From NCBI RefSeq assembly GCF_011045215.1, contig NZ_CP049201.1: a stretch of 64,000 bases of DNA; one strand, given 5' to 3'. Numbering within the stretch: position 1 is the first letter of the stretch; every line of letters begins with the position of its first letter. The position numbers and the translations under genes are program-made. This DNA is from Escherichia coli (GTDB lineage Bacteria; Pseudomonadota; Gammaproteobacteria; Enterobacterales; Enterobacteriaceae). This document shows positions 5,960 to 39,077 of this stretch, piece by piece. The notes below the pieces were generated by a model, which saw only the letters and a list, made by a program, of their open reading frames with translations, ran no database searches and was not told the origin of the DNA.

Positions 5960-6036
<77 letters not shown>

Positions 6037-7342: not shown

Positions 7343-7580
7343 TGTGATATTCTGTATGCCGTTTTTACGGATATGACAGGGTGAGGGATAACCTCACATC
7401 CTGATTATTGACTAAGTGCGCGTTGTTCATGCCGGATGCGGCGTGAACGCCTTATCCAGCCTACAAATCATGCAAATCCAAAATATTGCAGGAGTTATGT
7501 AGGCCTGATAAGCGTAGCGCATCAGGCATTTATGCGTTTAGGGTGAGGGATAACCTCGCCCTTTTTAATTCTGAGGTGCT
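7343..7580. repeat. REP/BIME-like palindromic cluster between mltA and tcdA
   Basis: gccggatgcggcgtgaacgccttatccagcctaca and aggcctgataagcgtagcgcatcaggc REP-type palindromes; small hairpin gggtgagggataacctc present twice (7379-7397, 7541-7561). Confidence 0.6.
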
Positions 7581-10521: not shown

Positions 10522-11230
10522 AATAAATATCCTCCGGCATAGCCGGAGGTTTTTCAAATGCGCCTATAAGGCTCTCTTACCAGCCGCGCCCTAACAGGCG
10601 CACACGATCTGACATTTGCATCCAACTTCGTTACTTACGGCCCGTAAACGGGCTGCCCGGATAGGGAATCGATAACTGCTCTCCCATTTCATCCTCTTCA
10701 AGCTGGTGCTTTATGTAATCCTGTATCTTCGCCGTGTTCTTACCCACCGTATCGACGTAGTACCCTCTGCACCAGAACTCCCTGTTCCTGTATTTGAATT
10801 TCAAATCCCCAAACTGCTCATAAAGCATCAGACTGCTTTTCCCTTTCAGATATCCCATAAAGCCGGATACGCTCATTTTGGGCGGGATCTCCACAAGCAT
10901 ATGGATATGATCTGCACAGCATTCAGCTTCAAGAATCCGTACGCTTTTCCACTCACACAGCTTTCTCAAAATACTGCCTATTGCTCTACGCTTCTCTCTG
11001 TAGAACACTTGTCTTCGGTATTTTGGCGCAAAAACTATGTGATATTTACAGTTCCATCGGGTGTGCGCTAAGCTCTTTTCGTTCCCCATTGGGACCCCCT
11101 TTTGATTTCTTGTTTGACACTTGCAGTTGCCAGACCGCAAGGTGTTTTAACAAATCAAAAGGGGTTTTAATAACTGGCTCAAAGCTGAAAGCTTTCCGGA
11201 ACCCCCAGCCTAGCTGGGGGTTTTCTGTGC
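10522..11230 (-). mobile_element. IS200 (IS200/IS605 family) insertion sequence, about 0.7 kb; ends approximate
   Basis: Contains a 152-aa Y1 (HuH) transposase near-identical to Salmonella IS200 TnpA; subterminal hairpins at 10531-10549 and 11200-11222; no terminal inverted repeats expected for this family. Confidence 0.85.
10631..11089 (-). CDS. tnpA: IS200 transposase TnpA (152 aa)
   Basis: MGNEKSLAHTRWNCKYHIVFAPKYRRQ...HIHML...GSPFTGRK; track ORF is extended 17 codons upstream of the likely start. Confidence 0.93.
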   Translation of the reverse strand: MGNEKSLAHTRWNCKYHIVFAPKYRRQVFYREKRRAIGSILRKLCEWKSVRILEAECCADHIHMLVEIPPKMSVSGFMGYLKGKSSLMLYEQFGDLKFKYRNREFWCRGYYVDTVGKNTAKIQDYIKHQLEEDEMGEQLSIPYPGSPFTGRK

Positions 11231-11232
11231 AC

Positions 11233-11438
11233 AAAAAAAAGCACCGCAATTAGGCGGTGCTACATTAATCACTATGGACAGACAGGGTAAATGTACAGGA
11301 AGTGAAAAAAGGTAGCTTTGCTACCATGGTCTGAATCGCAGACCAATTGCAAACACAACAACACAACATCACAACCGTAAGCCAAAAGTTCACCAGAACA
11401 CGCATTCCGATAAAACTTTTCGTTCCGGCTCAGGAAGT
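11233..11438 (-). ncRNA. gcvB: GcvB small regulatory RNA
   Basis: Reverse complement matches recalled GcvB sequence (ACTTCCTGAGCCGGAACGAAAAGTTTTATCGGAATGCGTGTTCTGGTGAACTTTTGGCTTACGG...) ending in terminator GCACCGCCTAATTGCGGTGC + U8; divergent from gcvA. Confidence 0.93.
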
Positions 11439-19899: not shown

Positions 19900-20445
19900 A
19901 GCATCCTCTTAGGTTCAGAAGCTTAAGCACGTAATCGGTTATGTTTTCAAAAGTGCAAAACCAGCGAGTTCGGGCTTCATATCAGTGAATATTTGCCTGT
20001 CTGAAATGAACTCATGGATTCATTTTCAAATAAAAAACGCTCTGTAATATGACGGCGGTCACACTTATTAGCTGGAAGGTGACTTTATGTGACTACCATC
20101 ACTTTAATAATCGAAATTTCATGCCCGTTTCAGAAAATAAATCATAAAAAACACAAACCAGATGACCGTATTAATTGTTTATGCCGAAAACGGGCATTCC
20201 TGGCTTAGGTGAATAGAAAAATGACCGTTTTGATAAATATTTTTAAGAGCGGTCATTTTTAATGGGGTTATAAAAAGAGAACTTGCAGTTATTTACTGTG
20301 ATTAGTTGAACCAGGTCACAAAATATAAGCTTGTGAATTTCTTTCTGGTTAATCAGGAAGAAGATGGTGGGTAATTAAACGGCTAATTCAATAGTGTGAA
20401 AGGAACAACATTATTGCCCTGTTTTGAATCAGAGAGAGGTAGCTA
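19900..20445. promoter_or_regulatory. Divergent fucPIKUR / fucAO control region; CRP-like motif TGTGA-N6-TCACT at 20088-20103
   Basis: 546-bp AT-rich intergenic region between divergent operons; motif seen by eye, other sites not resolved. Confidence 0.4.
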
Positions 20446-28853: not shown

Positions 28854-29399
28854 GTGGACGATTTGACCGCACAAGCCCTGAAAGATTTTACTGCACGCTA
28901 CTGCGATGCGTGGCATGAAGAGCATAAAAGCTGGCCGTTAAGTGAGGAACTGTACGGCGTTCCTTCACCGTGCATTATTTCAACTACTGAAGATGCCGTA
29001 TACTGGCAACCCCAGCCGTTTACCGGGGAACAAAATGTAAACGCGGTTGAACGCGCTTTTGATATTGTGATACAACCCACAATTCATACCTTTTATACGA
29101 CTCAGTTTGCCGGGGATATGCACGCGCAGTTTGGCGATATCAAACTGACATTGCTGCAAACCTGGAGTGAAGACGACTTCCGTCGGGTGCAGGAAAATCT
29201 GATTGGTCATCTGGTGACTCAGAAAAGGCTAAAACTGCCACCCACGCTATTTATCGCGACGCAGGAAGAAGAGTTAGAGGTCATCTCGGTGTGTAATCTC
29301 TCCGGTGAAGTGTGCAAAGAGACGCTGGGAACACGTAAACGGACGCATTTAGCCTCAAATCTTGCGGAATTCCTTAATCAACTTAAGCCTCTTCTGTAA
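28854..29399 (+). CDS. syd: SecY-interacting protein Syd (181 aa)
   Basis: 181-aa ORF; synteny upstream of csrB. Confidence 0.9.
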
Positions 29400-29418: not shown

Positions 29419-29436
29419 TGTGAGAGATCTCTTACA
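29419..29436. promoter_or_regulatory. UvrY (BarA/UvrY two-component) binding palindrome upstream of csrB
   Basis: TGTGAGAGATCTCTTACA, near-perfect 18-bp palindrome about 175 bp upstream of the csrB 5' end; matches the UvrY box as I recall it. Confidence 0.65.
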
Positions 29437-29611
29437 GACTCTGTAGGAGATCGCCAGGAAATAAGCGAATACTTAAAAAGATAAGAATCGTTATTTTCAT
29501 TTAAAAACAACATGTTGCTTGTTAATTCCTAACTTTCATATGAAATTTTCCTTAAGGCATTGTCTGTAAGCGCCTTGTAAGACTTCGCGAAAAAGACGAT
29601 TCTATCTTCGT

Positions 29612-29976
29612 CGACAGGGAGTCAGACAACGAAGTGAACATCAGGATGATGACACTTCTGAAGGACACACCAGGATGGTGTTTCAGGGAAAGGCTTCTGG
29701 ATGAAGCGAAGAGGATGACGCAGGACGCGTTAAAGGACACCTCCAGGATGGAGAATGAGAACCGGTCAGGATGATTCGGTGGGTCAGGAAGGCCAGGGAC
29801 ACTTCAGGATGAAGTATCACATCGGGGTGGTGTGAGCAGGAAGCAATAGTTCAGGATGAACGATTGGCCGCAAGGCCAGAGGAAAAGTTGTCAAGGATGA
29901 GCAGGGAGCAACAAATGTAGCTGGAATGCTGCGAAACGAACCGGGAGCACTGTGAATACAGTGCTCCCTTTTTTTA
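29612..29976 (+). ncRNA. csrB: CsrB, CsrA-sequestering small RNA
   Basis: Starts GTCGACAGGGAGTCAGACAACGAAGTGAACATCAGGATG; many repeated CAGGATG/AGGA motifs; ends with hairpin GGGAGCACTGTGAATACAGTGCTCCC + T8. Confidence 0.93.
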
Positions 29977-30020
29977 TTCCTGCTATCCTTCGCGGCAGTT
30001 TTTCTTATTGAGGTTGCTTT

Positions 30021-36320: not shown

Positions 36321-39077
36321 TTACCCGAGAATTTTGCTGGCTTCGCGCGCGACATTATCCATCTCGTCCAACAGTTCCAGCAGCTCCGGCTCCAAATCTT
36401 CTTCTTTAGTACCGCTACGTAGCTGTTGTTCGATCAGTTGGCAGAGATTCTTCATACGCGGCACACCGCTATAGCCGCAACTGCCATGCAGTTTATGAAT
36501 CAAATCAACCAGGCCTTCCGGGTTTTCTCCAACCAGCTGTTCCTCAACTTTGTTGCGAACTTCAGGCAGGAAATCGAGTAACATTTGCAGCATATCGCGC
36601 GCTAAATCGGTTTTTCCTGCTGCCTGGCGTAGTGCCAGTTGCCAGTCGAGGGTCGCATTCGGGTTCACCACAATTTCGTTGACTTCGGGCGTCACGACGC
36701 GAGACGAAATACCGCTGCCAGGCTTGTAGCGCAACAACAAATTATGCAATCGCTCTTCTTCAATCGGTTTCGCCAGATAATCGCTCATCCCTGCGCCAAG
36801 CAGCTTCTCTTTTTGCCCGGCCATTGCATGCGCCGTTACCGCGATAACCGGCGTTTGTTGCTGATGGGGGAGCTGGTGGATGAGCTCGCAGGCCCGAATG
36901 CCATCCATGTCAGGCATTTGAATATCCATTAAGATCAAATCGAACGGCATCTGTTTCGCCCGTTCAACCGCCTGATGTCCGCTATCGCAAAGTTCCACAT
37001 GTTGCACCATATCTTCCAGCAATGCGCCGATAAGTTTCAGGTTAGCGGGGTTGTCATCAACCGCCATGACTGTCATTGCCAGCTTACTTTCATCGGTTAC
37101 AGGCAAAAGCGTGTTTTGTTTGTGATGACAAAATTCCGTCAGGGCAGGCAACAGGCGCGTAGGTGTTAATGGTTTCAGCAGACACGCGCCGATACCATCT
37201 TGCTTGAGTTTTTCAGCATTGACTTGTGCATGGCAAGGAAGTGCCAGCATCAGGAAATCGGTCATCGATACCGCTTTCGCTAATCGCTCATGTTGCATTG
37301 TTAGCGGCTCGCGGAAGGTCACCGCGATGCCTAACAACATCATGTCGTAATGCGCGGGAGGCAGCGCGGAGAACGTTGGGCTATAAACCACTTCCAGCGG
37401 CGTTTCACTTAAAATATCCAGCGTGCATTGCGCTGCTGCGGAGTTTGGTTCGACATAGGCCAGGCGCTTACCTGCGAGACACTGGGTGGATGGCCCTTCG
37501 ATAATAATGTTCGGGTTCAGATCGAGATTAATGTGGAACCAGAAAGTTGAACCGCGATTCGGCTGGCTATGGAACGAAATATCGCCGCCCATTTCATTAA
37601 CCAGTTTTTGTGTAATCACCAGCCCCAGCCCGGTGCCACCATGACGGCGGGAAATACTGGCATCAGCCTGTCGGAAGGCCTGGAATAAGCGCGATTGATC
37701 GCGTTCAGGAATACCAATGCCGGTATCCCGAATCTGCACTTCAATCTGCACTTTGGTATTACTCAGCGCACGTTTTTCTACCAGAATATCAATGTTGCCA
37801 TTCTCGGTGAATTTAATTGCATTCCCCACCAGGTTAGTGATGATTTGCTGTAATCGCAGTGGGTCGCCGATCACGTTATCAGGCACGTCGCTCTTAATAT
37901 TGAGCGTCAGTTCCAGACCTTTATCGTGAGAAGAATGTGCCAGCAGGGTAACGACTTCATCCAGCGTGCTGCGTAGTGGGAATGGAATACTTTCCAGAAT
38001 CAGCTTACCTGCTTCCAGTTTCGAGAAGTCGAGAACATCATTAATAATTGCCAGCAAATTATTTGCCGAACGTTCAATCGTATTTAGGTGATCGCGCTGC
38101 GTTGGTGTTAATTCTGTTTTCAGCGTCAGGCGGGTAAAGCCAATAACACCATTCAGTGGTGTACGCAGCTCGTGTGACATATTTGCCAGAAACTCGGATT
38201 TAATACGTGCCGCTTCCTGGGCGCGCTTTTTCGCCAGATCCAACTCAACGTTCTGAATTTCCATCTGCTCCAGCGTTTCACGCAGATCGGACGTCGCCTG
38301 GTCGATATTGTGCTGCATTTCTTCGTGATAAGCAGCCAGCGACATTGCCATCGAGTTGATACCGTTTTTCAGCATATCCAGCTCGCCGAGCATAAATCCT
38401 TCCACCCGGCTGTCGAGTTGCCCGCGACGGATGCGGTCGACGGTATTCACCATGTTGCGAATCGGACCGGTTACATCGCGCATTAAGCGCCAGCCAAAAA
38501 TAAGCGCAATACCGATACAAAACAGCATCATCACGCTGGAAATAAAGATCTCTTTATATTGCTGCAAGCGAACCGATTTAAGATCCAGCTCAAGCGCAAT
38601 ATATCCCAACATATTTTGACTATTTTTGGCATCGCTACTGGGCGATTCGTCGGGGGAGTAACTCTCAGAAATAATCGGCGTGCGGAGGATCATAATATCG
38701 CCGTCACGAGTGACAGTGAGCTGGCGAGGAAACGGCACGTTGCTGCCGAGCTGCATTGATGAGGGATCAAGATGAAAATTGGAGGTGACAAAGAGTCGGT
38801 TATTTTCATCATAAACCGAAATCGCGCGAACAATATCGGAATGGCGACGATGCAGTACGCTTATTAACTGACCGATAGATTCGCGATTTTGCAGGCTCAT
38901 GCCATATTCAGTAGAAACTGCAAGCGGCTCAATAATGCTGGCACCGGCATCTTCCAGTTGACGCTGCAAGTCGTTATAGCGATGCACGACGAAAAAGATA
39001 CTCAGCAATAAACCAATAAGGACGGTCGGTGCCAGGATCAGAATCATCATGCGTGCGCGCAGGCTGTAGTTGGTCAT
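36321..39077 (-). CDS. barA: Hybrid sensor histidine kinase BarA (918 aa)
   Basis: 918-aa ORF with N-terminal TM segments, HisKA/HATPase region, receiver and HPt domains; synteny. Confidence 0.95.

Follow-up and report, generated by a model that had tools for sequence, protein, structure and literature searches.

The best-described counterpart of the locus analysed here is csrB of Escherichia coli K-12, where UvrY was mapped by ChIP-exo and DNase I footprinting (Zere 2015; PMC4682653). In that work, phosphorylated UvrY (UvrY-P) protected an 18-nt inverted repeat, TGTGAGAGATCTCTTACA, centred at −183/−182 of csrB; a partial copy of the repeat, TGTAGGAGA, lay 5 bp downstream of it, a second region of in vivo UvrY crosslinking extended from −56 to +25, and UvrY binding in vivo was dependent on BarA. 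The same paper assigns a putative IHF site to the interval separating these crosslinking regions (−142 to −56), gives a ~10-fold decrease in CsrB upon loss of IHF in K-12, and contains the authors' proposal that IHF bending repositions UvrY-P at the csrB promoter, for which NarL/IHF repositioning at narG is cited as an analogue. The number of GGA motifs in E. coli CsrB is given as 22 in a 2020 review of the Csr system (PMC7652899).

We compared this system with the csrB region of a 64-kb stretch of E. coli DNA (64,000 nt; hereafter, the window). Over 751 nt, the window and K-12 (locus L001) aligned with no indel and seven substitutions, four in the spacer upstream of csrB, one of them in the putative IHF core, and three in csrB itself. 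None of the seven affected the palindrome, the second half site, the conserved −35 and −10 blocks, or any GGA motif, and the 18-mer, half site, spacing, transcription start, terminator, 22 GGA motifs, and flanking syd and yqcC genes were those of K-12. A first-pass annotation of this DNA had proposed checking whether the sRNA and its upstream site are intact in this strain, with disruption of the palindrome or of the GGA repeats as the outcome to look for; both elements are intact, with CsrB full length and the box unchanged. Its description of csrB, the UvrY box, and barA as established biology also agrees with our results, as all three are essentially as in K-12 and represent already known, well-studied biology with nothing new. 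Taking the comparisons below together, we put at roughly 95% the probability that the region is a standard E. coli csrB locus that would work as it does in K-12.

The predicted UvrY box, of the SirA/GacA type, is an 18-nt near-perfect inverted repeat with no assigned strand. An exact-pattern scan found TGTGAGAGATCTCTTACA once in the 64-kb window, at 29419–29436, so that the near-palindromic 18-mer previously noted upstream of csrB is a single site at the position of the K-12 footprint. Being a near-palindrome, the sequence also matched on the reverse strand with two mismatches; its chance expectation was 0.03 per window, and two matches were obtained in 0 of 100 shuffles. When the 64-kb window was scanned with a relaxed GacA/UvrY pattern (TGTRAGN6CTYACA, at most one mismatch), no UvrY box was found besides 29419–29436. 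With the csrB start at 29610, the centre of the repeat, between 29427 and 29428, falls at −183/−182, far upstream of the sRNA promoter and at the value for E. coli csrB. A second, partial copy of the box, TGTAGGAGATCGCC, lies at 29442–29455 (+), 5 bp downstream of the inverted repeat, with the half site TGTAGGAGA at 29442–29450 as in K-12. The anatomy of the predicted site is identical to that of K-12 in repeat, centre, and spacing of the partial copy, and because the repeat (TGTRAGnnnnnnCTYACA) is identical to the footprinted K-12 site, UvrY-P would be expected to bind 29419–29436 in this strain as well. The 18-mer was unchanged in 9 of 9 E. coli alleles compared, a biased set in that some alleles were picked for differing in the spacer stretch, and 4,362 of 5,425 complete E. 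coli genomes had exactly the same 71 nt around the box.

The 18-mer sits just past the syd stop, 20 nt downstream of the end of syd at 29399, and as RNA it could make a 7-bp hairpin with a 4-nt loop, features that would suit a syd transcription terminator. We rejected this reading, along with that of a chance palindrome, and consider it extremely improbable that the 18-mer is either of these instead of a regulator site. No T run follows the 18-mer, which is absent from the output of the terminator scan, and the low chance expectation given above argues against an accidental palindrome. The spacing between the 18-mer and CsrB is also conserved across genera, the box adjoins GGA-rich sequence also in those loci, roughly half of the set, for which no Syd homologue was found in the fetched flank, and the identical K-12 18-mer is footprinted by UvrY-P.

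Evidence for a UvrY box also came from its conservation beyond E. coli. A scan of species-representative genomes for TGTRAGAGATCTCTYACA gave at least 120 loci, and the matches listed included loci from Enterobacterales, Vibrionaceae, Shewanella, Halomonadaceae, Alcanivorax, and Kangiella. Among the matches listed, 100 of 125 box occurrences had at least 16 GGA motifs in the 500 nt on one side, compared to 0.3% of background 500-nt segments in the same loci, for which the mean was 5.5. The Rfam CsrB model was found in 12 of 14 tested loci, and the distance from the box centre to the start of the model was 174–193 nt in Enterobacterales, 149 nt in Vibrio breoganii, and 191.5 nt in the window. 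The link of the box to a Csr/Rsm-type RNA is therefore conserved in other species. When 19 Enterobacteriaceae upstream regions were aligned, the conserved blocks were the repeat, the second copy of the box (kept as TGTRRGAnATYG), a C-A...TT IHF-like core (+), CTTGTAAGAC, GATTCTAT, and a GTCGACA start, and all of the upstream blocks conserved across genera were intact in the window. The identity or near-identity of each element with K-12 and its cross-genus conservation were observed directly.

At loci in Alcanivorax, Halomonadaceae, and Kangiella, the same box was accompanied by ~10–13 GGA motifs on one side, or by none (the low-GGA loci include L011, L013, L022–L024, L054, L062, L070, and L128); shorter Rsm-type RNAs, or targets of another kind, may account for this. 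One box was found in a contig labelled Porphyromonadaceae (L050), where chance or mis-binning is possible.

Two of the conserved blocks lie close to the csrB start. The first, CTTGTAAGAC, at 29574–29583 (+; −36 to −27), combines a −35-like TTGTAA with a UvrY half-site-like TGTAAGA, is nearly invariant in the cross-genus alignment, and falls within the UvrY crosslinking region that lies next to the promoter (−56 to +25). The second, GATTCTAT, at 29598–29605 (+; −12 to −5), is likewise conserved across genera and is likely to supply a weak −10 region, GATTCT. TTGTAA, a 17-bp spacer, and GATTCT can be read as a weak sigma-70 promoter. No canonical sigma-70 promoter was detected at csrB in a scan for the consensus, a result that fits an activator-dependent promoter.

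A putative IHF core was located in the spacer at 29505–29517 (+), where the window (AAACAACATGTTG) has one mismatch to the consensus, WATCAANNNNTTR, whereas K-12 (AATCAAAATGTTG) matches it perfectly. By our own consensus reading and the cross-genus alignment, this segment is the putative counterpart of the published IHF site. The mismatch is a T to A change at 29507, by which AATCAA becomes AAACAA and the T of the consensus WATCAA is lost; K-12 carries a second perfect IHF consensus on the opposite strand, whereas on each strand the window departs from the consensus once, at the T. C29508, A29509, and the TT at 29515–29516 are conserved across genera and intact in the window. This layout resembles the narG NarL/IHF model in having a distal site for a FixJ/NarL-family activator near −185, followed by a putative IHF site ahead of a weak promoter, but differs in that the putative IHF core of the window has one consensus mismatch. 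The four spacer substitutions (window/K-12: 29507 A/T, 29511 C/A, 29518 C/A, and 29529 C/T) lie between −103 and −81 and, in the alignment, are the sole regulatory difference from K-12. Of 5,425 complete E. coli genomes, 393, among them O157:H7 and isolate AB66, carried exactly the 91-nt spacer haplotype of the window; the K-12 haplotype was present unchanged in 2,867 of 5,418.

These substitutions bear on an alternative in which the circuit is present but quantitatively retuned, with the minority spacer haplotype weakening IHF binding and lowering UvrY-dependent csrB transcription relative to K-12. A perfect consensus on both strands in K-12 compared to one mismatch on each in the window, the large CsrB drop that accompanies IHF loss in K-12, and the lower frequency of the window allele would all be consistent with such retuning. 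However, the C, A, and TT of the IHF core that are invariant across genera are kept, an A at the IHF T position is also present in Kosakonia, Pluralibacter, and two Enterobacter-labelled species, and the 29518 column is not conserved across genera, with C at this position also in B2 strains, BL21, and O157:H7. Moreover, IHF tolerates deviations of this kind. The 20.7 kb aligned with K-12 contained six clusters of at least four differences in 23 nt, and we rejected the notion that the spacer cluster is a statistical outlier, as it is one of these six. We consider retuning unlikely, and there is a similarly slim chance that the IHF site is weakened by the minority haplotype, found in O157:H7 and in ~7% of complete E. 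coli genomes, which would then be a natural allele giving less CsrB and a shifted CsrA set-point in these lineages. The preferred reading, a csrB locus working as in K-12, leaves the spacer polymorphism over the putative IHF site as a small lead on natural variation in CsrB levels.

The csrB sRNA gene occupies 29610–29978 (+; 369 nt in the K-12 sense), with the K-12 csrB start, GTCGACAGGG, found at 29610. The Rfam CsrB model (RF00018) matched 29619–29978 (+) at 384 bits compared to a gathering threshold of 71 (E = 1e-111), and the match spanned positions 1–356 of the 356 in the model, with no non-standard pairs flagged. Counting of the CsrA-binding GGA motifs, which the first-pass annotation had suggested, gave 22, the same number as in K-12 and in the literature and at the same positions as in K-12. 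The motif was strongly strand-specific, with 2 copies on the opposite strand, and the window-wide density predicts ~4.6 for the RNA. In the minimum-energy fold, 17 of the 22 motifs were unpaired and 9 were in hairpin loops, and this fold was better than those of 100 of 100 shuffled sequences (z = −4.46). A terminator scan identified an intrinsic terminator at 29943–29975 (+) consisting of an 11-bp stem (29943–29968), a 4-nt loop, and T7; the interval originally highlighted, 29419–29976, thus runs from the palindrome to the csrB terminator and ends in the T run.

The three substitutions inside csrB (window/K-12: 29661 A/C, 29916 T/A, and 29949 A/G) affected no GGA motif and broke no pair. The A at 29949 forms an A-U pair in the terminator where K-12 has G·U, and 29916 is one base 5′ of a stem. 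The window matches the RF00018 consensus at 29661 and 29949, two positions at which K-12 differs from it. As a member of the CsrB/RsmB family (RF00018; clan CL00106), the window RNA shares the GGA-bearing hairpins and the intrinsic terminator, and nothing notable differs. Near-identity with K-12 CsrB (three substitutions in 369 nt) suggests that the RNA would bind and sequester CsrA.

In the RefSeq annotation of matching E. coli records, csrB has no feature, and syd and yqcC are the only ones there; with the gene unannotated in these records, sequence scans are how it gets noticed. One of the records with a csrB match is classed as a plasmid.

The 751 nt around csrB matched 5,425 of 5,426 complete E. 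coli genomes, with query coverage of at least 80% in 5,403 and below 80% in 22 of the 5,425. In strain 1919D62, a swine isolate (NZ_CP046009.1), an IS3-family transposase lies inside csrB at about +94 (L131, 3404–4700). Because natural disruptions of csrB exist, as in 1919D62 and among the 22 genomes with low coverage, checking its intactness is not vacuous. For positions 20000–44000 of the window, the best match among the 5,426 complete E. coli genomes had 99.4% identity over 24 kb, from which we conclude that the lineage is not closely represented in this collection.

The first-pass annotation had also placed barA at 36321–39077, about 6 kb from csrB, and a 918-aa ORF on the minus strand at this position encodes a protein with 0 amino-acid differences from BarA of K-12, a tripartite sensor kinase acting on UvrY by phosphorylation; the gene has 21 synonymous nucleotide differences. 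The phosphorelay residues H302, D718, and H861 are present, and the NCBIfam BarA equivalog NF008318 matched residues 1–917 at 1623.9 bits compared to a cut-off of 890. The Pfam domains sCache_4, HAMP, HisKA, HATPase_c, Response_reg, and Hpt were detected, and this domain set and the length of 918 aa are common to the window protein and the BarA family of GacS/VarS/LetS-type tripartite sensor kinases (NF008318). The distance from barA to the csrB 3′ end is 6.3 kb, and the gene order, queF-syd-csrB-yqcC-truC-yqcA-gudPXD-barA-rlmD, is the same as in K-12.

The circuit had been described as represented twice in the window. This description stands for the sensor, barA, and the target, csrB, but not for the whole circuit: uvrY was not found in the 64-kb window, and the window and K-12 are collinear between recB and the cysJ side. 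Because uvrY is absent from the window, "represented twice" can be taken to mean that the window holds both the sensor kinase and the target sRNA. The products encoded in the segments that depart from K-12 are an IS200-type transposase and TPM/LemA proteins, with no response regulator among them, and csrA, csrC, and csrD also lie outside the window.

The proximity of csrB and barA could be explained by a selected, co-inherited module instead of incidental linkage. In the fetched flanks of E. albertii, Enterobacter sp. Ag1, E. asburiae, Cedecea neteri, and Pantoea stewartii (loci L010, L015, L069, L096, and L063), csrB has a barA orthologue on the same side as in the window, in a set in which most flanks are too short to cover barA, and in E. 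albertii (L010, 2516–7553), which has no gud operon, barA is only ~1.7 kb from csrB. By contrast, the genes between csrB and barA (yqcC, truC, yqcA, and gud) are unrelated to the circuit, shared gene order is common among Enterobacterales without functional meaning, and uvrY and csrC are unlinked in K-12. Overall, we find a selected module doubtful, though less so than retuning of the spacer.

Published experiments in K-12 and Salmonella, from which we infer binding, activation, and sequestration, suggest how a standard csrB locus would operate in this strain. BarA would autophosphorylate and pass phosphate through a His-Asp-His relay to UvrY, encoded outside the window; UvrY-P would bind the 18-nt inverted repeat at −183/−182; and IHF would bend the DNA between the UvrY site and the weak sigma-70 promoter. 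Transcription of csrB would then run from 29610 to the terminator at ~29975, and the 369-nt CsrB, most of whose 22 GGA motifs lie in single-stranded stretches or hairpin loops, would sequester CsrA dimers from mRNAs. With csrB, the UvrY box, and barA intact, the Csr carbon-storage/virulence switch is expected to work as in K-12.

Several other features of the window were observed. Two further sRNA matches were the GcvB sRNA at 11233–11438 (−; 199 bits) and ES036/CssrF at 7464–7506 (+; 46.5 bits). Between gcvB and ygdI, ~705 nt at 10528–11232 are absent from K-12 and contain an IS200-type transposase ORF at 10631–11140 (−). An Rfam STnc490 match at 11099–11222 lies at the 5′ end of this ORF and is therefore apparently part of the IS copy and not of a host sRNA gene. 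At 5960–6036 the window has one tRNA-Met (CAT) gene at a site, between mltA and amiC, that in K-12 holds three in tandem. The segment 47633–52576 differs from K-12 and contains a LemA-like gene as well as three TPM-domain (YgcG-like) paralogues whose tails are rich in Gly/Ser; these genes together fill ~3.4 kb compared to ~0.9 kb in K-12; the CRISPR region beside it aligned to K-12 at 91%, with many gaps.
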